The notes under the pieces: model-generated
Seen by the model: only the letters and a program-made list of their open reading frames with translations
What the model was told of the DNA's origin: nothing
Database searches by the model: none
In this document: one piece after another, positions 24,806 to 41,657 of the stretch
How positions within the stretch are numbered: the stretch's first letter is position 1
Layout: each line of letters opens with the position of its first letter
Source: Desulfuromonadales bacterium
GTDB lineage: Bacteria; Desulfobacterota; Desulfuromonadia; Desulfuromonadales; SZUA-540
Assembly: GCA_033549025.1 (NCBI GenBank)
Contig: JAWSUS010000026.1
Span: 1-42,158 of the forward strand
Direction of reading: 5' to 3'
Length of the DNA: 42,158 nt
Translations under genes and position numbers: made by a program

Positions 24806-26370
24806 CCCTTTCCTCCGTCGATTTGATAAAACATGGCCAGACATTTTTCCCTATCGATTTTTCCGCTAGCGTGCTTGGGTATCGCCGGAACGAAATGAAT
24901 CGGCTCAGGGAGTTTATGTCGCGGTAGTCGGGCGATGCATTGCCCTAGCAAATCGTTTTGATTAAGGGCTTTGTTTGAGGGAACTGCAAGCGCCACAAGC
25001 TTGTGCCCCAAAAAGGCATCGGGAATCCCCAGAACGGCAACTTCAATCAACAGACGACTGGCCAGAAGCGTATCCTCAATTTCAAGAGGATTGATCCGAT
25101 GCCCTCCAACTTTGAGCAGGGAATCCTTCCTGCCAACGGCAAAAAAATAGCCGTCCTCATCGCGATAACCTAGATCGCCGGTGTGGTATCCCTGTTGGGT
25201 CAGTGCTTTGGCCGTTGATTGCGGGTCGCGCCAGTATCCCTTCATGATATTGGCCCCCGATGCCACGATTTCACCCACCTCGCCCACAGGCAGCTCCTGA
25301 CCGTTTTCATCCAGAACTTTCATTGAAACACCGGGGATGGGCCGTCCGATGGAGTCCATTTTTTCTCGCAGACGTTCCGGCTCGACGTAGGAGAGTCGTG
25401 CGGACGCTTCGGTGGCGCCGTACATGATGAAAAGCCGCGTCTTTTCCGGAAGAATCTCCAAAAGTTCATGTTTCAGGGAAGAGGCCATATGTCCACCTGC
25501 CTGCGAACAGTAACGAAGTGCCTGGAGTTTATCCCGTGAAGCTTTAAATGGAGAGCGATACAGCAGATAGGCGTAGGTGGAGGGCACGCCGGAGAAACCG
25601 GTCACCTTTTCTTCGATCATCTGCTGCACGACCTGGGCGGGAAACGCGAAACGGTTATTGATAACCACCTTCCCTCCAACGGCAACGTGGGTGTTGAGAA
25701 GGGATTTGCCCATGACATAGAAGAAGGGAAGCACCACCATCTGGACGTCGTCAGCGGTCAGTTCCAGGTATTCGACAATCGAGTGGACATTGGCCAGGAT
25801 ATTCCGGTGAGTCAGCATTACCCCCTTGGGTTTGCCGGTTGAACCGGAGGTCAGTATGATGCTGGCAACGTCTTCGGGATTTATTTCTAATGCCAAGTTG
25901 TCGGACTGCATCTCGCTGTCGATTTCCGACCAAGGAAATATCGTCAGGGCCTCAGCAGATGTTCTCTTATGCTGGTCAACGATGACCAAGGATTCTACGC
26001 CGAAGGTTGCAGGCGCCGTAGGCAATATCTGTTTCAGGAATCGATTGCGGGTGATGATAAGTTTTGGCTCAATGGTTTCAAGAAGCGGCCGGATCCCCTC
26101 TGCCGGAAGATCGCTATTCATCGGAACAGCCACAGCCCCGACCTTGAGGATGGCGTAGTAACTGACTATATATTCCAGGCTGTTTTCCAAAAAGATAACG
26201 ATCCTGTCCCCTGCGTTTACGCTCTGCCGAATAAGCCAACGGGCTGCTTTATTGGTCAAGGCATTAAGCACGCTGTATTGAAAGCGCTGCTCGCCATAGA
26301 CCACTGCTTCCTTTTTAGGAAAGCGGGCGGCGGACATCTCAAGTAATTGATGAACGCAAGTCGTATCCAC
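24799..26370 (-). CDS. Class I adenylate-forming acyl-CoA/acyl-ACP ligase
   Basis: TSGSTGKPKG, YGATE, TGD, GR.D, SGK. Confidence 0.9.
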   Translation of the reverse strand: MDTTCVHQLLEMSAARFPKKEAVVYGEQRFQYSVLNALTNKAARWLIRQSVNAGDRIVIFLENSLEYIVSYYAILKVGAVAVPMNSDLPAEGIRPLLETIEPKLIITRNRFLKQILPTAPATFGVESLVIVDQHKRTSAEALTIFPWSEIDSEMQSDNLALEINPEDVASIILTSGSTGKPKGVMLTHRNILANVHSIVEYLELTADDVQMVVLPFFYVMGKSLLNTHVAVGGKVVINNRFAFPAQVVQQMIEEKVTGFSGVPSTYAYLLYRSPFKASRDKLQALRYCSQAGGHMASSLKHELLEILPEKTRLFIMYGATEASARLSYVEPERLREKMDSIGRPIPGVSMKVLDENGQELPVGEVGEIVASGANIMKGYWRDPQSTAKALTQQGYHTGDLGYRDEDGYFFAVGRKDSLLKVGGHRINPLEIEDTLLASRLLIEVAVLGIPDAFLGHKLVALAVPSNKALNQNDLLGQCIARLPRHKLPEPIHFVPAIPKHASGKIDREKCLAMFYQIDGGKGW

Positions 26371-26385
26371 ATCCGTATCCAGTAA

Positions 26386-26673
26386 TCAACTACCTGAAAC
26401 AGCAGTTTGAGAACCTGCCCCGCCCTGCGACAACTTTCTGGTCAGATAGTTGAAGATGTTATTGATTGAGTCGAGGTTTTCGGGGAGCATCTCTTCGTCT
26501 TCCACTGTGACAGAAAAGTAATCCCCCATAAATTCAATTAGTTCAAGAATCCCCGTTGAATCGACAATGCCCGAATCCAGCAGAGAGGTTTCTTCATTTA
26601 AACCCTGGCCATCTCCAAAGAGAAAGTTTTCTACGATGAATTTTCGTATTTGATCCTTCATTTGACCCTCCAT
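26386..26673 (-). CDS. Acyl carrier protein
   Basis: GIVDSTG phosphopantetheine site, acidic, GAGG RBS. Confidence 0.9.
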   Translation of the reverse strand: MEGQMKDQIRKFIVENFLFGDGQGLNEETSLLDSGIVDSTGILELIEFMGDYFSVTVEDEEMLPENLDSINNIFNYLTRKLSQGGAGSQTAVSGS

Positions 26674-26699: not shown

Positions 26700-26715
26700 A
26701 GCAAGCCACATGCCA
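26700..26715 (-). promoter_or_regulatory. Internal sigma-54 promoter upstream of ACP
   Basis: Minus strand TGGCATGTGGCTTGCT in a ~200-bp intergenic gap. IHF-like CAAGCCATTG at 26721-26730. Confidence 0.85.
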
Positions 26716-26765
26716 CTATCCAAGCCATTGTTTTTGTATGGTTTTGTAGAAAGTTTACCGGCTTC

Positions 26766-26866
26766 TGTATCGCTTAGACACATCCAGTCAGCAGATTCTG
26801 TATCCCTTCGAAACAAGTCATTTAACGTGCTGAAATCACACAAACTGATTGTGTCTTTTGGATACA
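26766..26866. promoter_or_regulatory. Three predicted enhancer-binding-protein boxes
   Basis: TGTATCGCTTAGACACA (26766-26782), TGTATCCCTTCGAAACA (26799-26815), TGTGTCTTTTGGATACA (26850-26866). Confidence 0.8.
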
Positions 26867-26870
26867 ACAA

Positions 26871-27866
26871 TCACAAAGTGGGCAGGTTGATTTTCTCGAT
26901 CAACAATCCAGGCAGATGGAGGTATCTGGTGGTATTACGCTTGGTGTCGATATCACGGTAAACATGGGCTACCTGCTCAGGTGTCAAACCAATTTCAGCC
27001 GCTACGGCTTCTGTGGAGACGTTATGATTTTTTCCGAATAGGCACAGATCCATCAATTCATAGGGAAGCGAGAAGTAAAACTCGTCCTGACCCTGTGGCA
27101 GGGAATAGGTATCCGTGGTGGGTGGTCTTCGACGTATTTCTTCTGGAACATTCAGATATTCTGCAAGTTGATACACCTGTGTTTTGTAAAGATGCGCTAT
27201 AGGTTTGATGTCGGCGGCACCGTCCCCCAATTTAACGAAAAAGCCTTGATCATATTCGAGGCGATTCGGGGTCCCTGCAACGGCATAGTTCAAACGATCG
27301 GCATGATAATATTCAAGCATTTTACGGATTCGTTGTTTAAAGTTTGTGGCAGCAACAATGCTGAGATAAGTCTTCAGGGGTAGGGTTTGTTTTTCAGTTT
27401 CGCCTTCGGGGCTCTGAGCTACGATGGAAAAAAGGCTGAAACCTTGATTTTCCGTCACACTCGAAGTGACGATCTTCGATTTCCAGTCCTCCCCGTATTG
27501 AGGTATAACCGTACGGACCGCCTCATCGTAACGGCTGTAAAAACCAACGGCTTCCAGGATTTTTGAGATATCCTCATGAAGGCTCGGCATTTTGTAAGTA
27601 GAAATGATCAGGCTGCTAAGGTCCAAAGTGTCATCTGCGGAGTGTTTTTCTGGCATCTGCAAAGCAAAGACCTTTGATGCGCCTATTGCCCTGACCGCAA
27701 GAGCGGCCGTAACGCTGCTGTCGATTCCTCCAGAAATACCGACGACAACCCCTCTTTTTTTAACGTGGTTTTTGAGCATATCACGCAGACTGGAAGTAAT
27801 TTTTTCAGTCTCTGCAACGACATCGATATCAAGCACACTTTTGGAAAACTGCTCGTTCATCAACAC
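26871..27866 (-). CDS. nadE: NAD(+) synthase-like protein (NH3-dependent type, no glutaminase domain)
   Basis: GISGGIDSS, NFKQRIR, GTPN..E...GFFVK.GDG, LYKTQV, PTTD. Confidence 0.85.
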   Translation of the reverse strand: MLMNEQFSKSVLDIDVVAETEKITSSLRDMLKNHVKKRGVVVGISGGIDSSVTAALAVRAIGASKVFALQMPEKHSADDTLDLSSLIISTYKMPSLHEDISKILEAVGFYSRYDEAVRTVIPQYGEDWKSKIVTSSVTENQGFSLFSIVAQSPEGETEKQTLPLKTYLSIVAATNFKQRIRKMLEYYHADRLNYAVAGTPNRLEYDQGFFVKLGDGAADIKPIAHLYKTQVYQLAEYLNVPEEIRRRPPTTDTYSLPQGQDEFYFSLPYELMDLCLFGKNHNVSTEAVAAEIGLTPEQVAHVYRDIDTKRNTTRYLHLPGLLIEKINLPTL

Positions 27867-27896
27867 CTCACAATAGAATTGAAACTCATTTAATAT

Positions 27897-29885
27897 TCAA
27901 CCACCCACCACTTTTCGGCATACGATTCGTGAGGGCTTTTTTATTTCGCTATCACAGAATTGGTCATTACCGATAAATTGTTGATCTATCATATGGGTTG
28001 TGAGTATGGCCATTAGTGCCATATTTTGGGATTCGCTCGGAATGTTTTCGCATTTTCTGCACTTATCGACCAGATTGCGAACCTTAAGAGGATCGAAGTA
28101 GCCACTTCTGGCCACCTTTTCGAAGGAGAGAAATTCCTCCATGTAATCGTTCCCGCGAGAAGAAAAGAAACTTTGATGGATCGGTGCTCTATAAGGTTGT
28201 TTAGGCCTGGTCAGAATTTCTCCAGGAAGGATGTCGGCAAAGGCTTTCTTAAGAATATATTTCTCGTTAAGGCCCTTTATTTTCCAGTGCGATGGAAGGC
28301 GCATTGAAAAATCAATCAGCCGGTAATCAAGAAATGGCAGTCGTAATTCGATGGAGTTCCCCATGCCGACCCTGTCACCCTGGCTCGATAGGAGGTAATT
28401 GCTTAAAAACAGTTGTATTTCAAGATATTGGGCTCGTGACATCAGGTCTCTTTTATTGAAATCATCCGGAAGAGTTTCGGCTAAGGCATGAATCGGATCG
28501 TAGTCTGCCAGGCAAGCCTGTGCTTCTTTAGAGAGGAACTTAAGGTTTTTCGAACCACCATCCCAACGCACCCTGTGCGAAAAAAAGGGATCCAGTGCCG
28601 ATTCACCTTGAACACCAAAAAATTTTTCTAGAAGAAATTTTGTTCGGCTCGGATTCGTGAATATATAAGGATATAGACGCTGCAGGAGCAAAGGTCGCGA
28701 TCGGGAATCCCGTTCTTTCGCCCAGAAGGCTCTAACCTTGGCTTCTTTAAAAATATTGTAGCCACCGAATATCTCGTCTGCTCCCTCGCCAGTAAGGACA
28801 ACCTTAAAGCCATTTTCCCTTACGAGACCGGACAAAAGGAAAAGTGGCACCGGCCCCATACGTAGAAGCGGTTTTTCACTGTGCCATACCACTTTAGGTA
28901 ACAAAGCCCGAATATGATCATTTCGTGCAAGTATTTGGCGATGATCGGTTTTGAGAGACTCCACCATTTGGGTTTGATAGATCGTCTCATCAAAGGCCTT
29001 TTCTTCAAAACTAAGGGAAAAAGTTCTGAGATCGTTGTTGAAATGTCCTGAGATAAGACTGGTTATAATCGATGAATCAAGTCCTCCGCTAAGATAAGCA
29101 CCTACCGGCACATCCGCACGAAGTCGTAACCGGATGGCATCCTTAAGGAGATAAGACAATTCTTCGCATGCCTCTTCCTCAGTCCCCATCCAGCGTTCTT
29201 CCTGAGGATAGTATGGCAGTTCCCAATAAGGTTTCGGTTTTTCCGCTCCCGCACCGAGGGTTAGATAATGCCCAGGAGGAAGCTCCTTTATGCCTTTAAA
29301 AACTGATTGGTGATTTAGTGTCGTCCAAAAGGTAAAAACTTGGCTCAAGGCCGTCAATTCCAACTCTCGAGGGACTTGGGGACAGGCAAAAATCGCCTTG
29401 ATTTCAGAGGCGAAGAAAAACCGGCCGTTAACCTGACAATAAAAAAGAGGCCTAATGCCGACTCTGTCTCGCGCTAAAAAAAGTGTGTGATTTTTACTGT
29501 TCCATATGGCTAAGGCAAACTGCCCGTTTATTTTTTCCAGGCATGAAGGTCCGTATTCTTCAAAAAGATGCAACACTACCTCTGTATCCGTTGTTGTGCG
29601 AAAGCGGTGCCCTTTTTGAACCAACCCTGCCTTAAGCTCTAGATAATTAAAGGCTTCTCCATTATAAACAATCCACAAGGAGCCATCTTCATTGCTCATG
29701 GGCTGGCTGCCGTCGTCAAGCCCAATAATACTTAGCCGTGTGTGACCGAGAGCTATTTTCGAATCAAGGTAAATTCCACTTTCATCCGGACCTCTGTGGT
29801 TCAGCATGGACACCATGCTCTGAATTTCGTTCTGCTCAATATCGGCAGACTCCGTTTGTTTAAAAATCCCCGCGATACCGCACAT
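27897..29885 (-). CDS. asnB: Asparagine synthase (glutamine-hydrolysing)-family amidotransferase
   Basis: MCGIAG, HRGPD, NGE, LSGGLDSS, GEGADE. Confidence 0.93.
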   Translation of the reverse strand: MCGIAGIFKQTESADIEQNEIQSMVSMLNHRGPDESGIYLDSKIALGHTRLSIIGLDDGSQPMSNEDGSLWIVYNGEAFNYLELKAGLVQKGHRFRTTTDTEVVLHLFEEYGPSCLEKINGQFALAIWNSKNHTLFLARDRVGIRPLFYCQVNGRFFFASEIKAIFACPQVPRELELTALSQVFTFWTTLNHQSVFKGIKELPPGHYLTLGAGAEKPKPYWELPYYPQEERWMGTEEEACEELSYLLKDAIRLRLRADVPVGAYLSGGLDSSIITSLISGHFNNDLRTFSLSFEEKAFDETIYQTQMVESLKTDHRQILARNDHIRALLPKVVWHSEKPLLRMGPVPLFLLSGLVRENGFKVVLTGEGADEIFGGYNIFKEAKVRAFWAKERDSRSRPLLLQRLYPYIFTNPSRTKFLLEKFFGVQGESALDPFFSHRVRWDGGSKNLKFLSKEAQACLADYDPIHALAETLPDDFNKRDLMSRAQYLEIQLFLSNYLLSSQGDRVGMGNSIELRLPFLDYRLIDFSMRLPSHWKIKGLNEKYILKKAFADILPGEILTRPKQPYRAPIHQSFFSSRGNDYMEEFLSFEKVARSGYFDPLKVRNLVDKCRKCENIPSESQNMALMAILTTHMIDQQFIGNDQFCDSEIKKPSRIVCRKVVGG

Positions 29886-29926
29886 TGCAATAATTCACCT
29901 TATTGTCGATTGAATTGCCCTTAAAA

Positions 29927-31018
29927 TCAGCCCCAGCCGAGAGATCGGTTAAAAAGTTTTTTTTTACCTGAACGCGACTCTTCTTCATGAGACGCTGTGA
30001 GTTTCAAATATTCAGCAATGGTCTTTACCTCGCTCATCTGAGCGGAAAGTGCCTCCAGCTGGCTCGACAGCCGGGTGAACTCTTCCCGTTGTTTGGTCAT
30101 AAGGACCTTTAGAATGTTTTCGTGCATGCTGATGCGTTCAAGGAGGTTCTCTTTCTGATGAGATAATGAGTCTTCGTCGACCACCTCGACCTCTTCTAGG
30201 GCTTCGGATTCTCCCAAAATATCCAGATCTTCGACGACTTCCCTGACCATATCGAGAGTAACGTCGCGAACCTGGTCGGCAAAGGCGGCCAACAGAATGA
30301 AATCACAGAGGACATTGATCAGGCGGGGAATCCCGGTACTGAACCGGTAGATAAGATCCATGGCTCCGGTTTCGAAGGTGACGGCCTCGCGATTGCCGGC
30401 TTTTTCCATCCGATAGAGGATGTAGTCTTCGGTTTCTTCGCGCCGCAGAGGCCGTAGATGACAGCCGATATTGATGCGCTGTTTGAGCTGCCGCAGTTCG
30501 GGTTTGGCGATGAGGGTTTTCAATTCGGGCTGGCCGGCCAGGACAATCTGCAGGAGCTTGGTGTTTTCCGCCTCCAGGTTGGAGAGCAGGCGGATTTCTT
30601 CCAGGGTGTCCAGGGAAAGGTTCTGGGCTTCGTCGATGATGAGAATCGGCTTGCCGTGGTTCGCATATTCCTCAATGAGATAGCTGTTAAGCTCCCTCAG
30701 CAGGGCAACCTTGTCCTTCCCTTCGGGATTGAGGCCGAATTCTTCGTTGACCATAGCGATCAACTGCAAGGCGTCGACGCGAGTATTGAAAACCATGGCC
30801 AGCGAGGTATGGCCTGAGAACCGGCTGATGATGTCTTTAAGAATGGTCGTTTTGCCCGAGCCCACTTCGCCCGTGAGCAGAATGAAGCCGGCCCCTTCCT
30901 TAAGGCCGTACTCGAGATAGCTCAAGGCCTTGCGATGAGGGTCGCTGGGATAGAGAAATTGCGGATTGGGCACAATTTCAAAGGGTTTGAGGGTAAAGTC
31001 GAAAAACTCGTTATACAT
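29927..31018 (-). CDS. XrtA/PEP-CTERM-associated ExeA-like AAA ATPase
   Basis: GEVGSGKT, IIDEAQNL, LAGQPEL, GIPRLIN. Confidence 0.92.
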   Translation of the reverse strand: MYNEFFDFTLKPFEIVPNPQFLYPSDPHRKALSYLEYGLKEGAGFILLTGEVGSGKTTILKDIISRFSGHTSLAMVFNTRVDALQLIAMVNEEFGLNPEGKDKVALLRELNSYLIEEYANHGKPILIIDEAQNLSLDTLEEIRLLSNLEAENTKLLQIVLAGQPELKTLIAKPELRQLKQRINIGCHLRPLRREETEDYILYRMEKAGNREAVTFETGAMDLIYRFSTGIPRLINVLCDFILLAAFADQVRDVTLDMVREVVEDLDILGESEALEEVEVVDEDSLSHQKENLLERISMHENILKVLMTKQREEFTRLSSQLEALSAQMSEVKTIAEYLKLTASHEEESRSGKKKLFNRSLGWG

Positions 31019-31042
31019 TTAGAACCCCCTCGTTCAAGCGGG

Positions 31043-32281
31043 TTAGAATTCGAACGATCCTTCTACAAAAGCGATGTGATTGACATAGTCGCTGGAATCA
31101 AAATTGGAGTTTTCCTCCCGATAACGGTAACCGAGGCTGGCCGAAAAACGTCGTGCCTCATATTCCAAAGCCGGGCCGCCACCGAAGCGGTGGACACGCT
31201 CTTTTTCGGGGTCGTATTCCAGATAGTCGTAAGCTCCGGTCAAACGTAAAAGGATATTGCGAACTAGTGGCATTCCGACCGAAAGGCTACCGCCAACGAC
31301 ATCGTCTTGCCGGTCTATTTCCTTATAGCTGTCCCGGCCAGCGTGCCCTTCCAGGTCGAAAAAAACACCAGAATGTCGTGAGGCATAGATGTTGGCACGC
31401 TTACGTTCAAAGATTCCTTCGGTTACGGAATTAATGACCTCCTGCGAGTAACTCGCGCCTACTGTCCAATAAGAGGAGATTGTATAGTCAAGGCTGGCAG
31501 CCCAGAGGTTAGTCTTTTCTTCTTCCCGCTCGTCATAATCGATCCAGGATTGACCACCGTGACCTCGCAAAGTCACACGGGGTGAAAGACGATATTCCAG
31601 CCCAACCCAGGCATCCTGCCGGGAATAATCCTCGGTATTTTTGGCCTGATGATCGCGATATTCGTAATAGAGAATAAGGCTGAATCGCTGGGAGAGGTCT
31701 TTACGGACATCCGCATAGCCGGCATGGGCTTCGGAATCATCCCCTTCGGGGGCCTGGTAGGAGAGCTTTTCGAAACGATAGCCGATAATAGCCAGCAGCC
31801 CCGGCAGGGACCGATACTGATACCGGGGATTGGCCAAGAAACGATTCAGATTGGTCCGATTGACGAACAAGCTTTCTTCTACAACAGGGTCGCGTTCATC
31901 AATGGTGACCCGACTGTAATGGTCTTCAAGGGTAATGGTAAAATCGCGATCCGGCAGGATCTGCGCCGTACCCATGGCACGCTGCACATCCTTGAGACTG
32001 GATTCATTCTCTTCGGTCAGGTCGGCATAAAATATATAGTGGAGGCTGTAGTCGAGGCTGAGGTCGAGGTAATTGCTGTCCAGTTCAAGGGAGAGGCCGG
32101 GTATGGCCCGGGTGATAAAGTCCCCCTGCTCGTTGTTGGCCGACAGATAGACATTGTCGTTGTATTCTTCGCGCAAGGTGAAGCGCGGAGAGATATCGAT
32201 ACGCCCCCAAGCGACGCTAACAAACAAGAGAGTAAGCAGGCATCCCATGGTACCCGAGCGGATGAATATAGACCTCTTCAA
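31043..32281 (-). CDS. PEP-CTERM system-associated outer-membrane beta-barrel protein
   Basis: Signal peptide, EEYNDNV, alternating beta pattern, terminal Phe. Start moved to TTG 32281 (GAGGAGG RBS). Confidence 0.85.
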   Translation of the reverse strand: MKRSIFIRSGTMGCLLTLLFVSVAWGRIDISPRFTLREEYNDNVYLSANNEQGDFITRAIPGLSLELDSNYLDLSLDYSLHYIFYADLTEENESSLKDVQRAMGTAQILPDRDFTITLEDHYSRVTIDERDPVVEESLFVNRTNLNRFLANPRYQYRSLPGLLAIIGYRFEKLSYQAPEGDDSEAHAGYADVRKDLSQRFSLILYYEYRDHQAKNTEDYSRQDAWVGLEYRLSPRVTLRGHGGQSWIDYDEREEEKTNLWAASLDYTISSYWTVGASYSQEVINSVTEGIFERKRANIYASRHSGVFFDLEGHAGRDSYKEIDRQDDVVGGSLSVGMPLVRNILLRLTGAYDYLEYDPEKERVHRFGGGPALEYEARRFSASLGYRYREENSNFDSSDYVNHIAFVEGSFEF

Positions 32282-32294
32282 AGCTTTCCCCTCC

Positions 32295-33128
32295 TCAGTA
32301 GTAATATGAGTATCGTCCGGCAGACGGCATGACACTGGAATCGTTGTAGACGGCTCCCAGCAGATTGGTGCCTTTAAGACTGTCCATCGCTTCCCGGATC
32401 TGATCTGTCTTGGCAAAGCCTTCGCGGATGACGTAAATCACCCCATCGACTTCGGAACCGAGAATCTGGGCATCGGCAAAGGGCAGCGCTGGTGGCGTGT
32501 CAAAAATCACGTACCGTTCGGGGTAGCGTGATTTCAATTCACGGATCAGTTTTTTCATACGCTCTGAGGCCAGAAGTTCCAGATGGTTTTCAACGGGAGA
32601 TCCCGCAGGCAAAACAACCAGCTTGCCCAAGCCAGTCTTGATTAGGGCCTTTTCGACGGGGAGGCCTTCCTGCAGACAGTTGACCAGCCCGACTTCGGGT
32701 TGAAGCCCCAGGTAACGATGGATGGAGGGCCGCCGCAGATCCGTGTCAACCAAGAGCACCGTGTGGTCGTATTCCTGTGCCAGAGCCAGGGCCAGATTGA
32801 GAGTGGTGATGCTCTTTCCCTCACTGCCTACGGTACTGGTGACCAGCAGGGTGTTGAGAAAAGATTCCTTTTTGGTGAGCCTTCGCACCAAGGAACGGAG
32901 TTTTTTATACTCTTCAGAGACGATATCGTTATTGCGGGCCGCCATAGGCAAAAAGGGGCTTTTAATCTGGAGAGGCTTGACGTTCTGCAGAGCCTGCATG
33001 GAAGACCTGCTATCCGGATCATTGGGATAAACGGCGGTCGGCGAAACCGCCTTTGATATTTCATTGCTGTCATCAACACCCTGTCTCAGGCGGGTTGCTT
33101 TCTCGATCGCCTTTTCAATTCGGCTCAT
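32295..33128 (-). CDS. Exopolysaccharide tyrosine autokinase (Wzc C-terminal-like)
   Basis: EGKS Walker A, DTDLRRP, DTPP, C-terminal YSYYY cluster. Confidence 0.92.
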   Translation of the reverse strand: MSRIEKAIEKATRLRQGVDDSNEISKAVSPTAVYPNDPDSRSSMQALQNVKPLQIKSPFLPMAARNNDIVSEEYKKLRSLVRRLTKKESFLNTLLVTSTVGSEGKSITTLNLALALAQEYDHTVLLVDTDLRRPSIHRYLGLQPEVGLVNCLQEGLPVEKALIKTGLGKLVVLPAGSPVENHLELLASERMKKLIRELKSRYPERYVIFDTPPALPFADAQILGSEVDGVIYVIREGFAKTDQIREAMDSLKGTNLLGAVYNDSSVMPSAGRYSYYY

Positions 33129-33188
33129 ATTTACTGCCTCCCTTTGGGGGTAACGGCATTGCGTCAGACATGCCGTGGAGAGTGTCTT

Positions 33189-34691
33189 TTACCGTAGCAG
33201 GGCTTCGAAGGCGAGTAACCCGAGAACCGCTGAAAAATAGACGCCGGACACGGAATAAATAAGGGCATCACGACGCTTTACCATACGCAGTTGCTCTGTA
33301 TCAACGATGGTCGGGATGACGGCCAGCACCTCCACCCCCAACTCACGAATCTGTGCCACTTCGACAATGGTTGGGTTCAGGTGGTCCAGCAGCAGAATAA
33401 GCCCTACCCCGGTGCCCAGGCCGGCGGCAATAGCCAGAAGAATCATTCGCACCATATTGGGGGACTCAGGAGCCTTTGGCAGCTGGGCCGGATCAACGAT
33501 GCGGAAGGTTGAAGCTTTATTGCTGATTTCCATCTGCTTGGACACTTCCGACTGCCCCATGCGTGTCAGCAGCTGATCGTAGGTCTGGCGATAAGAATCC
33601 CGTTCCTGCTCCAGAGCGGCAAGAACCTTGCGGTTTTCAGGAACGTCCTGCAACTGGGCCTTGCGCCCCTCCATCCGTCGCAAAAGGCTTTCTTTCCTTG
33701 CGCTAAGGGAGCTTAGCTCCGCTTCGACAGTGAAGATATTTTGCTGTACCTCCTGGTGCACCGGGTTGATGGTGGTCATTTCTCCCGTCAGGGGCTGCCC
33801 TTCCTGGCCATTTTGCAAATGGCGCTTTAGGCCTTCGACCTCGGCTTTCAGACGAATGACTTCGGGATAATTTTCCGTGTAGGTCAGCAAAAGCTGGGCG
33901 ATCCGCTGCTCAAGCCCCACGATGCGGTCTGCTCCTTGCTGTTCGTTGAATATGGGGACAGACTGTTTTACATTCTTCAATTGCTGGGCCAGTTGTCCCT
34001 TTCTGGCCTCGAGGGTCTCCATAGTCAGGGTGATATCCTCGACTTCCCTTTGATATGCCTGGATGTCCTGCAAAATAGCCTGTTCACCCACAGCCAGGAA
34101 AACGCCCTGCTGGCGACGGAAATCGATGATGGCGTCTTCTGCTTCGTCCAGTTTCTTCTTGAAATGAACGAGCTGCTCATCGAGGAATCGGTTGGCGCCA
34201 TAGGTCTCTTCGCGCTTTTCCGATATATTTTCTTCGACATAGGTCCGCACCAGCGTGTTGACGTAATCCCTGGCGAAAACCGGATCTCCATCAACGATGG
34301 AAACGGTAAAAAGACCTTCACGATTTCTGAAATCGATCTTAGTCCTTGTCTGCAAAGCCTCCACATAATCCTGCAGCCTGGCCTCGCTGCCGAGCTCGGC
34401 ATCCATGTCCATCTCGTTAAGCACCTTGCTGATCAGGTCGCGGCTGAGCATGGCATAGCGCAGTACACGGATACGGTCATCCATGCTCGGCGTGATGGCG
34501 ATGCCCTCAACCAGGCTGTTGATGACATTGCTTTCAATGAAAACCGTACTGTCCGCCTTATATTGCTTCGGCAGATAATAACTGTAGGCAATCACCAGGG
34601 ACATAACCACCAGTGCCGTAGCAATACCCAGGTAGCGTTTCTTATAGAGTACACGCAGGTTGCGCATAATTTCAGATGACGATCTTTTCAT
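33189..34691 (-). CDS. Polysaccharide chain-length determinant (Wzz/GumC-like)
   Basis: N- and C-terminal TMs, coiled coil, YTENYPEV, IVDPAQLP..P. Confidence 0.9.
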   Translation of the reverse strand: MKRSSSEIMRNLRVLYKKRYLGIATALVVMSLVIAYSYYLPKQYKADSTVFIESNVINSLVEGIAITPSMDDRIRVLRYAMLSRDLISKVLNEMDMDAELGSEARLQDYVEALQTRTKIDFRNREGLFTVSIVDGDPVFARDYVNTLVRTYVEENISEKREETYGANRFLDEQLVHFKKKLDEAEDAIIDFRRQQGVFLAVGEQAILQDIQAYQREVEDITLTMETLEARKGQLAQQLKNVKQSVPIFNEQQGADRIVGLEQRIAQLLLTYTENYPEVIRLKAEVEGLKRHLQNGQEGQPLTGEMTTINPVHQEVQQNIFTVEAELSSLSARKESLLRRMEGRKAQLQDVPENRKVLAALEQERDSYRQTYDQLLTRMGQSEVSKQMEISNKASTFRIVDPAQLPKAPESPNMVRMILLAIAAGLGTGVGLILLLDHLNPTIVEVAQIRELGVEVLAVIPTIVDTEQLRMVKRRDALIYSVSGVYFSAVLGLLAFEALLR

Positions 34692-34758
34692 AGGGGTTCC
34701 CTCTCAAAGCAGGCCAGTTTTCCGCCAGTCATCCACCTGAGTTGGATGGTTAAACGGA

Positions 34759-35562
34759 TCAGAAAAGCCCTTCGTCGACGATGACGTAATCTCCTGGCCT
34801 GAGAAAGACGTTCTGGCTCAGGTCCTTCCCTTTAAGGAGATCCTTGACGCTGACCCGTATTTTTTCGCCCGTGTTGCGTAGCACAGTGATGTTGCTGCGA
34901 TTGGCGTATTCGTTGAAACCCCCGGATTCCAGAATGGCATCAAGAACCTTCATTTCGGATCGGTAAACGATGAACATCGGCTGCGCTACCGCCCCGACCA
35001 CATAGACTTTGTTCAGCTCATTGTTGGGGATGAAGAGGATATCTTCGGCCTGCAACTGGATATCCTGTGAAAAGTCTCCCTCCCAGAAGAGTTTGTAGAA
35101 ATCGGCCTTCACCTTCTGTCCCTGGCGCAGCAGGTAGGCATGGCGGAGATCGGCGTTTTCCAGGGTGCCGAAACGGCAGAGGAACTTAAACAGACTGGTG
35201 CGGCCCGCCAGGTTGACCACCTCGGCGGGGACACCTCCTCCCGAAACGTAGATCCGGTTATTGGTAATCTGGGAAACCGTCAGCGTCACGATCGGTTCTT
35301 TCACCAGACGCCGGATGGACTTGCGCAGGTTTTCAGCCAGAGCGGCCGGCGTCAGGCCGGATGCTTCAATATCGCCGGCGGCCGGAATGGTGATCTTGCC
35401 ATCAGGCCTGACCGTCACCTGCACGCTGAGGTCGGGTACGCCCCAAACGGACACCTGTAGCACATCGCCATCCCCGATAACGTAATCCCCCGCCCTGACC
35501 ATGGAGGGCAGCATCATGGTCAGAGTCACAAACAGCAGGCCAATACAGATTGAAAATTTCAT
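34759..35562 (-). CDS. Polysaccharide export protein (Wza/Poly_export + SLBB)
   Basis: YVIGDGD.L, VRPDGKI, SLBB repeats. Start moved to ATG 35562. Confidence 0.9.
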   Translation of the reverse strand: MKFSICIGLLFVTLTMMLPSMVRAGDYVIGDGDVLQVSVWGVPDLSVQVTVRPDGKITIPAAGDIEASGLTPAALAENLRKSIRRLVKEPIVTLTVSQITNNRIYVSGGGVPAEVVNLAGRTSLFKFLCRFGTLENADLRHAYLLRQGQKVKADFYKLFWEGDFSQDIQLQAEDILFIPNNELNKVYVVGAVAQPMFIVYRSEMKVLDAILESGGFNEYANRSNITVLRNTGEKIRVSVKDLLKGKDLSQNVFLRPGDYVIVDEGLF

Positions 35563-35566
35563 CCCC

Positions 35567-36928
35567 CTACCTTCCTCCGCGGCCGAATAGCACGACTTTG
35601 ACGGTTTCAAGAATGATCACCAGATCAAGCAGCAGTGAATAATTTTTGATGTAAAACAGGTCGTAGCGCAGCTTTTCCAGCGCATCCTCCTCAGAGGCGC
35701 CGTATGGATATTTTACTTGGGCCCAGCCGGTGACTCCCGGCTTGACGGTATGACGCGTGGCATAATAGGGGACACGTTCATTGAGCTTGTTCACGAACTC
35801 GGGACGTTCGGGACGAGGACCAACAAAGCTCATGTCGCCGCGCAGCACGTTGAACAGCTGGGGAACCTCATCCAGACGGCTCTTGCGCAAGAAGCGCCCC
35901 ACACGGGTGATACGGGGATCGTCTTCAGTCGCCCAGACCGCACCTGTGGTTTTTTCGGCGTCCTGCCCCATGGTGCGAAATTTATACAGATGAAAGGTCT
36001 TTTCCCCGACTCCGACCCTCAATTGCTTGAAAAGGATAGGTCCGGGTGAATCGAACTTGATCATCAAAGCGATAATCGGCGCAAAGGGCAGAAACAGAAT
36101 GATTCCCGTCAGGGAGAGGATCACATCGAGCCCCCGTTTCATGCCCCGCATAAACTGGGTCAGCTTGAAACCGCCGGAAAAAATAAACCCGCTTGGATTG
36201 ATGTTCTCGACCATGAGCTTGCCGGTGACATCTTCGTAAAAGGTTACGGCATCGACGATCTCAATCCCTTTAAGCTTGCAGCGCAGAATTTCACGCACCG
36301 GAAACACTCCTCGACGTTCGGACAGAGAAATGACGATTTTATTGACCTTGCGATTTTCGGCGGCGGCCAGCAGGGTATCGACAGAAGCGATGAGCGGATC
36401 TCGGGAGTCCGGATCGTATTCCCGGCCGGGTGACACAAATCCTTCAAAGACATAACCGGTATTGGACATGGAGATGAGCATCTCCATCTGCTGAGCCAGG
36501 GGACCGACGCCGAAGACGAGCACCTTTTTGGATATCCCCGGCACCCTGAGCAATAAAGGATAGCGGTTGTGCCAGAGGAATTGAATGACACCAAAAAGGA
36601 TCAACGAAAGAACCAGGATGTCCGTGCGGATGGCAATAGAGGGTTGAAAATAATACGTTACCGACAGAACGGCAAAGGCCAGCACCAACGAGGCTAGGAC
36701 ACGTCCCATAGTTTCGCTCAGGCCGAAGCGTTTTTCCCGACTGTACATTTCTGAAAAGTACGTCGTGAAAAGCAGAACAAAAGCAAACACCAGAACCTTT
36801 AGAATGTCTCCCAGGAAGTTGCCATCCAAAAGAGACAGGGTACCGGAGCGCACCATGAGACCAAAATGATGCGCTATAAGCGCGATCAGCAGGTCGCCGC
36901 CTACCAGGATCATCAGTGTCTTTCCCAT
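35567..36928 (-). CDS. Priming undecaprenyl-phosphate sugar-phosphotransferase, XrtA system
   Basis: KR..D, YKFRTM, DPRITRVG, LDEVPQL, GPRPER, PGVTGWAQ. Confidence 0.93.
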   Translation of the reverse strand: MGKTLMILVGGDLLIALIAHHFGLMVRSGTLSLLDGNFLGDILKVLVFAFVLLFTTYFSEMYSREKRFGLSETMGRVLASLVLAFAVLSVTYYFQPSIAIRTDILVLSLILFGVIQFLWHNRYPLLLRVPGISKKVLVFGVGPLAQQMEMLISMSNTGYVFEGFVSPGREYDPDSRDPLIASVDTLLAAAENRKVNKIVISLSERRGVFPVREILRCKLKGIEIVDAVTFYEDVTGKLMVENINPSGFIFSGGFKLTQFMRGMKRGLDVILSLTGIILFLPFAPIIALMIKFDSPGPILFKQLRVGVGEKTFHLYKFRTMGQDAEKTTGAVWATEDDPRITRVGRFLRKSRLDEVPQLFNVLRGDMSFVGPRPERPEFVNKLNERVPYYATRHTVKPGVTGWAQVKYPYGASEEDALEKLRYDLFYIKNYSLLLDLVIILETVKVVLFGRGGR

Positions 36929-36941
36929 CTTCCTTACTCCA

Positions 36942-39590
36942 TCAGCCAGATAGTCGCTTCAGCAGCTCATCGGTCTTGCTCGCTTCGGGGAAAGCCCCAT
37001 ATTCTTTGGCTTTCTTAAGTATGGCCAACGCTTTATCGGTTCTGCCTGCTGCACTGTAAGCAAGTCCCAGGTGATAGCAGACGGTCGGATTGTCCGGCAA
37101 CAGGACGGCAGCTTTTTCAAGGGATTGGATTGCTTCCTCGAAACGGCTGTTTTTGATGAGGACGTAGCCGAGCGTATCTAGAATACCCGGATCTTCCGGG
37201 GCGTTACGGAAAGCCTTGAGGGCCAGTTCGAGAGCTTCCGCCTTGTCGGCGTAGTTGTCGGCATAAAGATAAGCGAGATTATTCAAGGCAGGCGTGTAGT
37301 TGGGCTCTTCCCGCAGAACCTGGCGATAATGATCAAGGGCCGCTGCCTTGTTTCCCTGCCGATCTGCCAGAGCGCCGAGAGCAAAACGGGCCGGGAAGAA
37401 GTGAGGCGTTTTTTGGAGAATACCCTGGTAGGTCTTCATGGCCTGGTCATAGTCTTGCTTCTTTTCAAAGATCTGAGCGATCCGGATTTGCACTTGGGGA
37501 GAAGCGCTGGCCTCAGCTGGCATTCGCTGCAGTGTCTGCAGAGCCCTTTCATAGAGACGGTCGTGTTCATAGACGGCAGCCAAAAGCAGATGCCCGTATG
37601 GGGATTGGGTCTGGGTATAAATCACTTTTTCGGCCAGCCGGGTGGCCTCCTCTTTTTTCCCATAATGCATCAAAACCTGTACCAGAACAGGATATCCTCG
37701 GCCCGGGTTTAGTTCCTCGATCCGCGACAACAGCTCCAGGGCTTCATCCACACGGCCGGACTTGAGCAGCAGACGGCTTTTGAGTTCAAGAAGTCCCGAA
37801 TGATCTGCATACTCTTTCTGAGCCTGTTCAAGGACGGCCAATGCCTCCGGCTGAGCTCCTCTTTTAGCGTGATAATTTGCCAGTCCGACAGCACCCTCGA
37901 CTGTTCCCGTGTCTCTACCCCGTCGGTAAGACTCGAGGGCGGCCACCTCATCCCCTTGCAGCTCCATAATCATGCCGCTGGCCAAATGAGCGTTTACCTG
38001 CGTTGGTTCCAGCGAGAGCACAGCGTTCAGTTCAGCCAAAGCCAGGTCGTATTTTTCCTGTGAGAGATAGAGATTCGCCAGATTGAAATACGGGGTGAAA
38101 TAAAGAGGAGAAGCCTTTTTGGCAGCCTTCAGCCTGTCGATAGCCTCGGGAATCTTTTTCTGGGCCAGCAGCACCCCGGCCTGATAATTGTAGATCAGGG
38201 CGTCCTGCGCAGATCCCTTCACGCCCTCTTCCAGAACTTCCATGGCCTGCTGATAGTTCTGCTGCCGGATATAATGGTTGGCGAGAACCAAACGGGTATC
38301 GAGAACGTCGGGGGCGATACGGACGGCCTTGACCATGTCTTCTTCGGCCTGTGCCACATCGCCTTGGGAAAGATGAAACAGTCCTTTTTTCAGATGCACG
38401 TCAGCCAGTTTCGGGTCCAGGGTGATGGCCCGGTTGAATTCCGCCATGGCCTTGTCGTATTGCCCCATGGCCATATGGGCACTACCGAGAATATTCCAGG
38501 CCAGGCCGCTTTCCGGGTTTTTGGTCAGAATGATATCCACCTGGCTGATGGCATCCTCGAGACGCTTCTGTTTCAGAAGGGTCATCGCCACCATACAGCG
38601 GGCCTGCACCGAGTCAGGGTTGAAATCGAGAACCTTGTGAAACTGGTTTAAAGCCAGTTCGTACTGTTCCATCTGGAGGTAGGAAAGACCGAGGAAATAA
38701 TAGGCGAGAGGGTTACTGCCCTTTTTTAGAGACAGCTGGAGCTCGCGGGTAGCCTGCTCGCTCTGGCCCTGCAGATAACTGGCCATTCCTTTGAGCAGCA
38801 TCCCCTGGTCATTGGCTGGAAAGCGTTCAACCAGGATGGCAGCTACCTCTTCGCCCTCAGAAAAACGCCCGGCATCCAAATCGTACAGTCCCATTTTAAA
38901 GAGAGCGTCGGCATCTTCCGGGTCGAGGGCACTCCAGGCGTGATAAATTTCACGGCTTCGCTTTAAATTCCCCTCGGCGGCTTCCAGGTCGGCCAACATA
39001 AAATAGGCGGCCCGGGCACGGATTTTCCGGTCGACGATCACGGCGAGAAGATCACGGGCCTGCGAATTTTTTTGCTGTTTGATGAAGATCTGGGCCAGAA
39101 GAAGCTTCGCACTGAGGTTCTTATCGTTCGCAGCGACCGCTTCGCGCAAAGCTTTTTCGGCCTCATTCCATTCTTCCTTCTGGTAGAAGGCCTGCCCTAT
39201 GATTTCATAAACTTCCGAATCTGCCGGCGCGCTTTCCTGATAAGACGCCATCAGACGAAGTGCTTCGTCGGGATTTTTAGTACGAAGGTTCCATTGGGCC
39301 AGTTTGAGTTGAAGACCAGGGAAGGCAGGATTTTGAAGACGTACTTTTTCGAATTCGTTAAATGCCCGGTCGTATTTGCCGGTTTCAAGATAGGCGTTGC
39401 CCAATTGGAACCTGGCTTCAAAAAAATTAGGATCCTTCTCCAAGGCATTTTTAAATAGCACGACAGCGCCGCGGTAATTACCCTGGGCGCTCAGAGTGAG
39501 GCCTTCCTGATACAGACCTTCTTTGGTCTGTCGGTTACAACCCCCTATAATGCAGGACAAAACAATCAGGCCTACCAAAACTTTCTTCAA
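36942..39590 (-). CDS. prsT: TPR-repeat lipoprotein PrsT
   Basis: Lipoprotein-like signal ending IIGGC, many TPRs, ALNNLAY and DTLG motifs, context in an XrtA locus. Confidence 0.88.
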   Translation of the reverse strand: MKKVLVGLIVLSCIIGGCNRQTKEGLYQEGLTLSAQGNYRGAVVLFKNALEKDPNFFEARFQLGNAYLETGKYDRAFNEFEKVRLQNPAFPGLQLKLAQWNLRTKNPDEALRLMASYQESAPADSEVYEIIGQAFYQKEEWNEAEKALREAVAANDKNLSAKLLLAQIFIKQQKNSQARDLLAVIVDRKIRARAAYFMLADLEAAEGNLKRSREIYHAWSALDPEDADALFKMGLYDLDAGRFSEGEEVAAILVERFPANDQGMLLKGMASYLQGQSEQATRELQLSLKKGSNPLAYYFLGLSYLQMEQYELALNQFHKVLDFNPDSVQARCMVAMTLLKQKRLEDAISQVDIILTKNPESGLAWNILGSAHMAMGQYDKAMAEFNRAITLDPKLADVHLKKGLFHLSQGDVAQAEEDMVKAVRIAPDVLDTRLVLANHYIRQQNYQQAMEVLEEGVKGSAQDALIYNYQAGVLLAQKKIPEAIDRLKAAKKASPLYFTPYFNLANLYLSQEKYDLALAELNAVLSLEPTQVNAHLASGMIMELQGDEVAALESYRRGRDTGTVEGAVGLANYHAKRGAQPEALAVLEQAQKEYADHSGLLELKSRLLLKSGRVDEALELLSRIEELNPGRGYPVLVQVLMHYGKKEEATRLAEKVIYTQTQSPYGHLLLAAVYEHDRLYERALQTLQRMPAEASASPQVQIRIAQIFEKKQDYDQAMKTYQGILQKTPHFFPARFALGALADRQGNKAAALDHYRQVLREEPNYTPALNNLAYLYADNYADKAEALELALKAFRNAPEDPGILDTLGYVLIKNSRFEEAIQSLEKAAVLLPDNPTVCYHLGLAYSAAGRTDKALAILKKAKEYGAFPEASKTDELLKRLSG

Positions 39591-39599
39591 AACGTCCTC

Positions 39600-39998
39600 C
39601 TAATTGCCAGGCCCCTGGCAGGGCATCATGCGAGAGACTGTATCCCTGAAATTACCGAAATCGAGGGGTTTGGTCAGGCAAACCACCTGACTGAGCCCCT
39701 TGATACGTGCCAGCAGGTCGGAACTGATATAGTCAGAGAGGATGATGGTCTTGACCCGGCGGTATTTCGGCAGTTCAGACAGAATTTCGGAACCGTACGG
39801 ATAACTCAGGATGACCAGACCGTGTTGGTCCGGGTTGCAGCGCTCCTTGAACTCATGGCATTGCTGGAGATAATCCGGTGTGTAGCCGTACATTTCGAGT
39901 AAGGCGCAGCAAACCCGTCCGAACCCCGCTTCATCGACAATCATGATTTTTTTAACATCCACAAAAGCCCCCATCCGCAAGGTTTCAACCATGACCAC
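39600..39998 (-). CDS. Degenerate single-domain receiver protein (start uncertain)
   Basis: IMIVDE and LTKP receiver features. The phosphoacceptor position appears to be Ser (VILSYP). Confidence 0.65.
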   Translation of the reverse strand: MVMVETLRMGAFVDVKKIMIVDEAGFGRVCCALLEMYGYTPDYLQQCHEFKERCNPDQHGLVILSYPYGSEILSELPKYRRVKTIILSDYISSDLLARIKGLSQVVCLTKPLDFGNFRDTVSRMMPCQGPGN

Positions 39999-40049
39999 GG
40001 TGCAGTTTTCGCCATAAAATGAAAGGGAGTCCCCTCATTCCTTATCTAT

Positions 40050-40066
40050 CGCAAGCATTGTGCCGA
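40050..40066 (-). promoter_or_regulatory. Sigma-54 promoter of the main EPS export operon
   Basis: Minus strand TCGGCACAATGCTTGCG (GG-N10-GC). Imperfect IHF-like CAACCACATG at 40071-40080. Confidence 0.82.
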
Positions 40067-40125
40067 AGCACAACCACATGTTTTTACATGCTTTTTAAGG
40101 CCGCAATAAAAAACCAAGGGCAGAA

Positions 40126-40226
40126 TGCCCCCTAAGGAAACACTGTCGGCCCACCCTGTGTATCCAACAGAAACAACTGGCCCAACTACCTGGTTTTATT
40201 GGTCTTGAGTGTTTCGATTGGATACA
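40126..40226. promoter_or_regulatory. Three predicted enhancer-binding-protein boxes
   Basis: TGCCCCCTAAGGAAACA (40126-40142, degenerate), TGTATCCAACAGAAACA (40159-40175), TGTTTCGATTGGATACA (40210-40226). Confidence 0.8.
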
Positions 40227-40301: not shown

Positions 40302-41657
40302 TCAGGCGAGAATATGATAGTCGCTTAGGCGCTTGTAAAGGGCTTTGCGTGAGAGACCGAGCATTTTAGCGGCCTTGGACTTGTTGCCCTTACAGGCATC
40401 CAGCGCCTCGACAATAGCCCTTGCCTCCATCTCCTTAATTGTTTGGGTCGGCTCCGCTTTTTCATGAGTGGACTGCGGTGCAAAGAGATCCTCAGGCAGT
40501 TCCTGAAGGGTAATTTCTCTTCCCCGTGCCAGAACGACAGCACGCTCAACGACGTTGCGTAATTGGCGGATGTTTCCGGGCCAGCTGTAGCTTTGAAACA
40601 CCTCGAGTACACGTTCGGATAGAGCGAGTAACTTGTTCTCCCGGCGGCAGAATTCCTTGACAAATGACGCTGACAGAATGGGGATATCCGAACGTCGCTG
40701 ACGCAGAGAGGGAACTTTTATCTGCACGACGTTGATGCGGTAGAACAGGTCTTCGCGAAAATGTCCTCTTTTAACTTCCTCTTCAAGATCGCGATTGGTG
40801 GAGGAAATCAGGCGAAAATCGACAGAAACTCTTTTGTTGCTGCCCAGCATGTCAACTTCCTTTTCCTGCAGGACTCTCAGAAGCTTGGCCTGCACGGAAA
40901 GATCGAGTTCCCCTATTTCATCAAGAAACAGGGTTCCCCCGGAAGCCTGTTCGACACGACCGACGCGTCGATTCGAGGCGCCGGTGAAAGCGCCTTTTTC
41001 ATGGCCGAACAGCTCGGATTCGATCAGGTCTTTGGGGATGGCTGCACAGTTGACGGCAACAAAGGGTTTTGTGCCTCTCTTGCCCTCAAAGTGCAAGGCC
41101 CGGGCGACCAGTTCCTTGCCTGTCCCCGTTTCACCGGTGATCAGCACGCTGCTTTCCGAATCCTTGATCGATTTGATGGTTTCAAAAATTCGCTGGATTT
41201 CGGGGTGCCGGCCGATAATTCGGTACTTTTGATTTTCTTCGCCGAGCTGTTCCCGCAACAGGTGGAGTTCGCGTTTAAGACGGCGCTGATCCACCGCCCG
41301 GGACAGAATGCCTTTGAGATCCGTGTAGTTGGGAGGTTTGACGAAATAGTAGAAGGCCCCCTTGGTCATGGCGCTGACGGCGGACTCTACGTCACCGTAG
41401 GCGGTGAGGAACATAACGGGGATATCGGGGTAGTGCTCACTGATATAGTCGTGGAGTTCGATGCCGTCTTCTTCGGGCATCCGGACATCGCTGATCACCA
41501 CATCGATATCCAGTGACCGTAAAAGTGTTTTGGCATCCCTGGCACACTCGGCCTCTGCCACCTGGTATCCGGCCTCACTGAGGATGGCCGAAAGAACCCT
41601 GCGGGCATTGGCCTCGTCGTCAACCACCAGAATATGTCCGCAGGACTCTTCGCTCAT
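40302..41657 (-). CDS. Sigma-54-dependent NtrC-family response regulator
   Basis: Receiver (VVDD, SDVRMP, KP), GETGTGKE, GAFTGA, LFLDEI, WPGNIR, Fis-type HTH. Confidence 0.95.
   Translation of the reverse strand: MSEESCGHILVVDDEANARRVLSAILSEAGYQVAEAECARDAKTLLRSLDIDVVISDVRMPEEDGIELHDYISEHYPDIPVMFLTAYGDVESAVSAMTKGAFYYFVKPPNYTDLKGILSRAVDQRRLKRELHLLREQLGEENQKYRIIGRHPEIQRIFETIKSIKDSESSVLITGETGTGKELVARALHFEGKRGTKPFVAVNCAAIPKDLIESELFGHEKGAFTGASNRRVGRVEQASGGTLFLDEIGELDLSVQAKLLRVLQEKEVDMLGSNKRVSVDFRLISSTNRDLEEEVKRGHFREDLFYRINVVQIKVPSLRQRRSDIPILSASFVKEFCRRENKLLALSERVLEVFQSYSWPGNIRQLRNVVERAVVLARGREITLQELPEDLFAPQSTHEKAEPTQTIKEMEARAIVEALDACKGNKSKAAKMLGLSRKALYKRLSDYHILA

Follow-up and report, generated by a model that had tools for sequence, protein, structure and literature searches.

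One of the closest described relatives of the regulatory system considered here is PrsK-PrsR. According to a passage of Haft et al. (2006, PMC1569441), the PrsR box is a 17-mer that ends in TTTACA. Rows in the supplement of PMC4641369 give the sites of Desulfovibrio PrsR, identified as DVUA0057 in passages of PMC3333781 and PMC4641369, as TGTCG...TTACA or close to it, and section 6 of PMC4641369 treats TGT-N11-ACA as a known class of enhancer motif in Desulfovibrio. Against this background, contig JAWSUS010000026.1 (C26) of a Desulfuromonadales bacterium (GCA_033549025.1; genome size 3.39 Mb) was analyzed. The complete contig of 42,158 nucleotides, referred to as the window, holds an XrtA/PEP-CTERM exopolysaccharide cluster whose main genes are all on the minus strand (NCBIfam profiles). 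An initial annotation had proposed that arrays of 17-bp boxes (TGTDTC-N5-GAHACA) upstream of two sigma-54 promoters in this cluster are bound by an adjacent NtrC-type regulator (40302-41657). With a probability of about 0.83, the boxes represent a real operator, most likely of this activator, because boxes and regulator co-occur in two phyla, boxes are nearly absent where the regulator was not found, and degenerate relatives of the regulator in a family designated f14 retain both the box and the same recognition helix. Together, they would define a two-component module, apparently not described before, that serves the XrtA exopolysaccharide operon in two phyla.

The initial annotation had not recognized the motif as a described one. 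Consistent with this, no published description of motif or module was found in open full texts, with subscription journals, RegPrecise-type databases and supplements of Geobacter/Pelobacter genome papers outside the scope of the search. Term searches yielded nothing relevant in the supplementary files of PMC2725144 or the main text of PMC2700814, and no description was found under the putatively orthologous locus tags GSU1987-1990 and GSU1984-1988, of which GSU1987 and GSU1985 occur in papers.

Box arrays at two predicted sigma-54 promoters

Both large intergenic gaps contained the proposed -24/-12 elements on the minus strand, TGGCATGTGGCTTGCT at the internal promoter and CGGCACAATGCTTGCG at the main promoter (Table 1). 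Five of the six boxes listed in the initial annotation match TGTDTC-N5-GAHACA exactly. The sixth, the proximal box of the main promoter (TGCCCCCTAAGGAAACA), has three mismatches and a matrix score of 9.0, compared with 17-24.5 for the other boxes, although its position is conserved: orthologous promoters hold a box of variable strength at -78 to -82. Re-measurement reproduced the distances of the boxes from the GC of the -24/-12 element (65/98/149 and 75/108/159 bp) as well as their spacings (33 and 51 bp), and the sequence between boxes was unconserved, as had been claimed, with 16 of 50 spacer positions identical between the two window promoters.

A chance origin of the boxes is excluded. 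Shuffled sequences contained on average 0.02 exact matches and none of 100 shuffles reached five, while the 3.39-Mb genome holds six exact matches where 0.44 are expected. Half-site spacers of other lengths (0-12 except 5) gave 0-2 genome matches each. With the two boxes on contig C31 described below, the strong window boxes make up seven of the eight genome sites scoring at least 14, and they are the only clustered ones. The refined box consensus is TGTDTCCWWWGGAHACA.

The IHF-like elements that had been noted (integration host factor, IHF) were found at both promoters, with 8/9 matches to the Escherichia coli consensus WATCAA-N4-TTR at the internal and 7/9 at the main promoter. Across 23 orthologous promoters, the mean match peaked at 5.6/9 at offset -19, with 4.3 at -18 and 2.4-4.1 elsewhere. 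PrsR-type promoters have such an element as well, which makes it a general feature of the sigma-54 promoters in this setting. A sigma-70 consensus scan gave no excess over shuffles in the 26.7-kb gap and two 9/12 sites, with 0.9 expected, in the 40-kb gap.

In 23 Desulfuromonadales promoters, boxes were located at -156 to -167, -111 to -115 and -78 to -82 from the -24 GG, or, in an alternative set about one helical turn further out, at -175 to -177, -123 to -127 and -91 to -93; at the internal promoter of the window, they are one turn closer than in the main set. The commonest spacings were 51-52 bp, seen 20 times, and 33-35 bp, seen 13 times. Geobacteraceae-type loci had other spacings, with the nearest box about 160-400 bp out. 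Phase clustering over 66 boxes gave a vector strength of 0.59 at 10.5 bp and of 0.49 at 12 bp, so that the helical phasing put forward in the initial annotation is only suggested. The arrays have the hallmarks of sigma-54 enhancers: repeated dyads some 70-300 bp upstream that are conserved in orthologues, a GG-N10-GC -24/-12 element downstream, and a linked activator with a receiver domain, a GAFTGA-containing AAA+ domain and a helix-turn-helix (HTH) domain. In one relative (G032, locus L010), about 25 head-to-tail 14-bp repeats lie between regulator and boxes, approximately 130-480 bp past the stop codon.

Co-occurrence of the boxes with the adjacent regulator

A matrix was trained on 24 sites from 13 relatives, and a score of at least 14 was taken to define a strong box. 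Among 301 genomes of the class, the regulator was found in 41 and PrsT in 161; regulator-negative denotes genomes in which it was not found with the query used, five candidates per genome being scored in the class-wide search. Conservation in orthologous loci, on which the proposal depended, was borne out: 37 of 40 Desulfuromonadia loci had a strong box downstream of the regulator and 31 had at least two (some overlap between samples; G136 and G129 left out). Of the three loci without one, two stop at a contig end no more than 160 bp past the gene; in the remaining one (G298), the regulator is located elsewhere and two boxes stayed before the pseudo-receiver gene and prsT. Held-out loci (n = 23, with the three misses dropped) all had at least one box, and 20 had at least two. 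A sigma-54 element was present downstream of strong boxes in 33 of the 40 orthologous loci.

Upstream of prsT in genomes in which the regulator was not found, a strong box was present in one of 47 regions and two boxes in none; these regions were drawn from about 120 PrsT-positive, regulator-negative genomes plus the first relatives. The single strong box sits with a degenerate relative of the regulator that has the same recognition helix. Genome-wide, the exact motif occurred in 33 of 41 regulator-positive genomes and in 42 of 260 others, while a backwards-motif control matched 59 of 301. Unrelated NtrC-type genes (generic, 37-46% identity to the regulator, from a homologue search of genome contigs) served as a further control and, over 80 loci and 857 kb, gave two single matches and no pair. 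When metagenomes were scanned for paired boxes at a distance of 51 bp, without reference to the regulator, six loci were returned, four of which showed the order regulator, boxes, sigma-54 element, pseudo-receiver and prsT. The fixed 51-bp double-box pattern matched only 4 of 40 relatives, because the spacing is 51 or 52 bp and boxes are often imperfect.

The regulator was not found outside the class in a sample across the phylum of the window (2/251 matches; none among 241 genomes of other families). In one class of Nitrospirota, it was detected in 36 of 151 genomes; a box was present in 22 of the 30 best loci, and in 20 of the 22 in which a pseudo-receiver gene follows.

Three genomes of family f14 (G016, G266 and G264; loci L298, L299 and L226) encode, directly before prsT, a degenerate relative of the regulator with 33-40% identity and the helix LSRKTLYKRL, and no intact kinase orthologue was found upstream in any of the three. 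GAFTGA and the Walker B glutamate are lost in G016 and G264, the two proteins that were aligned; that of G266, which has a broken frame, was left out of alignment and tree. In a quick tree, the former two fell on the regulator's side of a long branch (SH-like approximate likelihood ratio test, SH-aLRT, 100) relative to 18 other activators of the genome, a placement that is unsure because of long branches. Each of the three genomes keeps a box near the stop codon (best scores 13.1, 20.6 and 26.3). The 500 bases after these boxes contained no sigma-54 match in any of them, and a sigma-70-like -35/-10 pair was seen by eye beside the boxes. Retention of the box with the same helix, despite loss of the ATPase motifs, suggests that the box follows the helix rather than the ATPase, as expected if the helix reads the box.

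Four stranded, raw-read RNA sequencing runs from a relative were mapped to its orthologous locus L169, with the first mate taken as antisense, in agreement with the strand of the regulator gene. The regulator transcript stopped near position 1425, and read depth over the boxes was 0-3.4. In three of the four runs, signal resumed at or below the predicted start at 1128 and reached 10-12, 3-5 and 55-181, respectively; in the fourth, depth was 10-19 over the regulator and 0-1 over the operon. These data show that a separate, separately controlled transcript begins in the gap. Only some 5 bases separate the predicted start from the ATG of the pseudo-receiver gene, which suggests that its message is nearly leaderless.

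Regulatory genes, predicted target operons and additional promoters

The regulator combines a receiver domain, an AAA+ domain with GAFTGA and an intact Walker B motif, and a Fis-type HTH domain with the recognition helix LSRKALYKRL (Pfam, motif inspection). It scored 386.9 bits against the PrsR profile TIGR02915 (cut-off 502.6 bits), compared with 650.9 bits for the true PrsR on contig C6; its nearest named homologues are from Desulfuromonas species. The gene for the presumed cognate kinase is broken at about residue 200 of 338 by an insertion sequence flanked on both sides by a 7-bp target duplication, and its N-terminal part is on contig C47 (C47:77-682). Both ends of C26 are ends of one insertion sequence, with the left end joining C6 and the right end C47 (7-bp target duplications). 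As the boxes are undecayed, the insertions in this genome are probably recent. C6 begins with prsK, with prsR 6 kb further along. On C47 (682-926), the kinase gene stands back to back with a PEP-CTERM gene that has PrsR-type boxes, so that the two systems share one intergenic region.

The first gene of the main operon encodes a stand-alone pseudo-receiver, in which an alignment of four orthologues showed Ser at the expected position of the phospho-accepting Asp, with Lys-Pro retained. It heads the operon in most regulator-carrying loci and was not found in any of five f14 genomes searched. Behind it, the export-side gene order is prsT, priming glycosyltransferase, export protein, chain-length determinant, tyrosine kinase, outer-membrane protein and ATPase, with a TIGR03018 match just under its cut-off (NCBIfam). 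Genes for an asnB-like protein, a nadE-like protein, acyl carrier protein (ACP), acyl-CoA ligase, deacetylase, exosortase, EpsI and glycosyltransferases follow. The nadE-like gene was present in 47 of the 301 class genomes; the search did not find it in either of the two sampled genomes from the same genus.

Table 1. Positions of regulatory elements and genes in the window and in two further loci (L222, L223).
Feature	Position	Strand	Basis
Distal box, main promoter, -162 from -24 GG	40210..40226	.	Exact match; orthologues at -156 to -167 or about -176
Middle box, main promoter, -111	40159..40175	.	Exact match; orthologues at -111 to -115 or -123 to -127
Proximal degenerate box, main promoter, -78, one good half-site	40126..40142	.	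Orthologues at -78 to -82 or -91 to -93
IHF-like site, main promoter	40071..40083	-	7/9 consensus; positional peak in 23 orthologues
Sigma-54 -24/-12 element, main promoter; predicted start near 40039	40050..40065	-	Sequence; matching element in orthologues
Distal box, internal promoter, -152	26850..26866	.	Exact match
Middle box, internal promoter, -101	26799..26815	.	Exact match
Proximal box, internal promoter, -68	26766..26782	.	Exact match
IHF-like site, internal promoter	26721..26733	-	8/9 consensus
Sigma-54 -24/-12 element, internal promoter; predicted start near 26689	26700..26715	-	Sequence
NtrC-type enhancer-binding protein, proposed box binder, not PrsR	40302..41657	-	Pfam domains, motifs, TIGR02915 below cut-off
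Presumed cognate histidine kinase, C-terminal part (about residues 200-338)	41662..42081	-	tblastn with intact kinase of G001
End of multi-copy insertion sequence splitting kinase gene	42083..42158	+	7-bp target duplication
Stand-alone pseudo-receiver, first gene of operon	39600..39962	-	Pfam Response_reg 12 bits (below cut-off); Atlas receiver-like clusters 0.96-0.98
prsT and XrtA-type export block, main predicted target	29927..39590	-	TIGR02917, 03013, 03027, 03007, 03016, 03015 over cut-off
asnB-like and nadE-like genes, first half of asnB-nadE-ACP-ligase cassette, upstream of internal promoter	26871..29885	-	NCBIfam
ACP, acyl-CoA ligase, polysaccharide deacetylase, exosortase, EpsI, glycosyltransferase; first genes downstream of internal promoter	21239..26673	-	NCBIfam
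Tandem c-di-GMP-I-family aptamers	L222:6508-6849, 9228-9304; L223:7255-7592, 9980-10056, 11316-11392

The 26.7-kb array lies inside the asnB-nadE-ACP-ligase cassette. Among 30 nadE-ACP gaps, only that of this genome contained boxes or a sigma-54 element. The coordinated control of export and tailoring halves that the initial annotation had suggested was therefore not upheld as a general design, and the idea that the second promoter had arrived with the cassette was unsupported on the same count. In the clusters of 11 relatives (18-40 kb examined), boxes upstream of a sigma-54 element occurred only behind the regulator. In two other genomes (G135, G237), it is asnB of this cassette that is preceded by three boxes and a sigma-54 element. 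With boxes before asnB there and in the nadE-ACP gap here, the cassette has come under the motif twice, by different routes.

The sixth exact match in the genome is on contig C31, 51 bp from a partner with one mismatch. These boxes lie at -165 and -114 from a sigma-54 element before a Flp pilin gene (C31:28537-29040, L048), which is cut just before its 3' end by another insertion sequence; a tad-like operon, identified from translations, follows on contig C40 across such an element. This third array, like the PrsK/PrsR pair on C6 and the insertion in the kinase gene, had not been noted in the initial annotation. Another genome (G015) has a sigma-54 element 1.1 kb upstream of flp-tad, with boxes at -165 and -80 relative to it. 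A general link of the boxes to flp pilins was rejected, with strong boxes at one of 24 flp loci. The promoters of the ACP-ligase-exosortase genes and of flp/tad look like lineage-specific recruits.

Several further observations concern neighboring sequences. Riboswitch aptamers of the cyclic di-GMP-I (c-di-GMP-I) family occur in the leader of a box-controlled operon in G028 (L004:1037-1133) and, as tandem copies, ahead of the gene that is oriented away from the boxed asnB promoter in G135/G237 (Table 1). An Rfam search of the window gave no match. A third sigma-54 element, at window positions 1031-1046 before the open reading frame 127-951, has a partial PrsR-type (TGTCG) box at 1119-1135 (-90) and no box of the new type. 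GC content is 32-39% at window positions 1-4000 and 10000-12000, compared with 58% for the genome, which suggests that the polysaccharide genes in these regions were recently acquired.

Alternative explanations and comparison with described systems

The mechanism of activation by NtrC-type proteins is established and is the source of the analogy proposed here. The enhancer-binding protein encoded at 40302-41657, which is not PrsR, would use the boxes as its upstream activating sequences. Upon phosphorylation of its receiver domain by the upstream kinase, dimers of the regulator would occupy two or three boxes, separated by about three and five helical turns, and oligomerize, IHF would bend the DNA just upstream of the -24 motif, and the AAA+ ring would remodel the sigma-54 closed complex. 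In this way, the regulator would switch on sigma-54 transcription of the operon for pseudo-receiver, PrsT and exopolysaccharide export. We infer binding by the regulator, sigma-54 dependence, the role of IHF and the pairing with the kinase.

A number of observations weigh against this assignment to the adjacent regulator. Physical linkage of regulator and boxes means that shared inheritance alone would yield some co-occurrence, and related genomes are not independent, so that the counts overstate significance. Eight of the 30 Nitrospirota loci had no strong box, and two of the six regulator-blind metagenome matches were unrelated. At L169, pile-ups of read ends were located at 1039 and 1061, inside the first gene, and not at 1128. 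Strong boxes within 700 bp of flp were confined to this genome, and the flp loci of the regulator-positive G022, G028 and G032 had none (one weak box, 11.7). The consensus of the initial annotation overlaps the predicted motif of Desulfovibrio DVU2394, and, with its kinase gene split, the circuit may be silent in this genome.

That the boxes are instead PEP-CTERM boxes bound by PrsR, encoded just beyond the left end of the window, is very improbable. PrsR-type sites share the 17-bp TGT-N11-ACA frame, PrsR was present in all 13 regulator-positive relatives, and Table 1 of PMC4641369 assigns an exopolysaccharide operon to the Desulfovibrio PrsR. However, the TGTCG-type boxes at three PEP-CTERM gene promoters of this genome score at most -1.5 on the new matrix, so that the window boxes constitute a different motif. 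They do not conform to the TGTCG...TTACA 17-mer, the regulator falls outside TIGR02915, and the distribution of the boxes among genomes does not follow that of PrsK/PrsR/PrsT, with a strong box in one of the 47 prsT regions from regulator-negative genomes. PrsR, checked for 8 of these 47, was over cut-off in all eight, none of which had a strong box in the prsT region, and its recognition helix differs from that of the adjacent regulator. A somewhat less improbable candidate, still with low odds, is another enhancer-binding protein that recognizes TGT-N11-ACA (e.g., DVU2394- or DVU3381-like), with the adjacent gene as a linked passenger. The genome encodes more than 20 enhancer-binding proteins of this kind, and PMC4641369 states that motif likeness need not track likeness of the binding domain. 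Moreover, DVU2394 sites share TGTRTC, and one predicted site fits TGTDTC-N5-GAHACA exactly (PMC4641369). Yet position 7 is A in all 15 published rows of DVU2394 sites and in none of 48 half-sites here (C, G or T), the DVU2394 helix, compared by eye from the published binding-domain row, differs from that of the regulator, and the boxes track the adjacent regulator and its degenerate relatives in two phyla.

The usual position of the boxes, within 300 bp of the regulator stop codon, and terminator-like hairpins at 40114-40135 would fit a 3'-end feature of the regulator gene (terminator, RNA structure or autoregulatory site) rather than enhancers acting downstream. This interpretation is extremely improbable, given that promoters at a distance from the regulator have such an array too (at 26.7 kb, at flp, and at asnB in G135/G237), that the boxes of G298 stayed with prsT and not with the regulator, and that in Desulfuromonadales the boxes keep a fixed distance to the -24 element but lie anywhere between about 180 and 860 bp from the stop codon. 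By contrast, the possibility that the assignment is correct and the arrays are idle relics in this strain is compatible with binding by the adjacent regulator, and we rate it at somewhat below even odds. In its favor, an insertion with a 7-bp target duplication interrupts the kinase gene, and another element interrupts the flp pilin gene near its 3' end; against it, seven of the eight top-scoring genome sites are these boxes, so that they have not decayed, the regulator is intact in this strain, and cross-phosphorylation is generally possible.

If the adjacent regulator acts as proposed, electroactive Desulfuromonas and Geobacteraceae, whose biofilm matrix matters for electrodes and metal reduction, would have a candidate switch and operator for their XrtA-type exopolysaccharide operon. 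According to passages of PMC10599522, most two-component systems in these organisms are uncharacterized, and in one mutant polysaccharide genes were up and three PEP-CTERM genes down. PrsR is encoded at the opposite end of the cluster, and its predicted box, located at PEP-CTERM cargo genes, is a different one. Machinery and cargo would thus each answer to a two-component system of their own; whether they are regulated apart can be tested directly. More speculatively, and rather doubtfully at present, XrtA/PEP-CTERM biofilm systems of Desulfuromonadia and Nitrospirota may be two-tiered: a kinase-activator-pseudo-receiver module would license polysaccharide, exosortase and sometimes Tad pilus machinery via the box, with PrsR driving the cargo and the pseudo-receiver feeding back, and the f14 activator, without ATPase motifs, kinase and sigma-54 promoter, would have been converted to a sigma-70-type regulator of the same operon.

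Among the systems compared, DVU2394 and DVU3381 resemble the present one in their 17-bp dyads with TGT/ACA ends, which are paired 32-34 bp apart in the published sites (PMC4641369), and differ in that their described targets belong to energy metabolism and envelope stress. DVU2114 is, according to a passage of PMC3333781, an enhancer-binding response regulator at an flp pilin promoter in Desulfovibrio. The two DVU2114 site rows compared are unlike the present motif, and flp is here an occasional recruit (this genome and G015). The likeness to PrsK-PrsR extends to the sigma-54 promoter, the repeated 17-bp upstream sites, the NtrC-type activator, the IHF-like element beside the -24 motif and the XrtA/PEP-CTERM locus itself. 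The two differ in site sequence and recognition helix, in the score of the present regulator below the TIGR02915 cut-off, in the short kinase (338 residues), in targets (a machinery operon as opposed to the cargo genes of PrsR) and in the narrower distribution of the present regulator (41 of the 301 class genomes, compared with 161 with PrsT). By analogy with NtrC- and PrsR-type enhancers, the module would work as a regulatory system of the ordinary sigma-54 kind.

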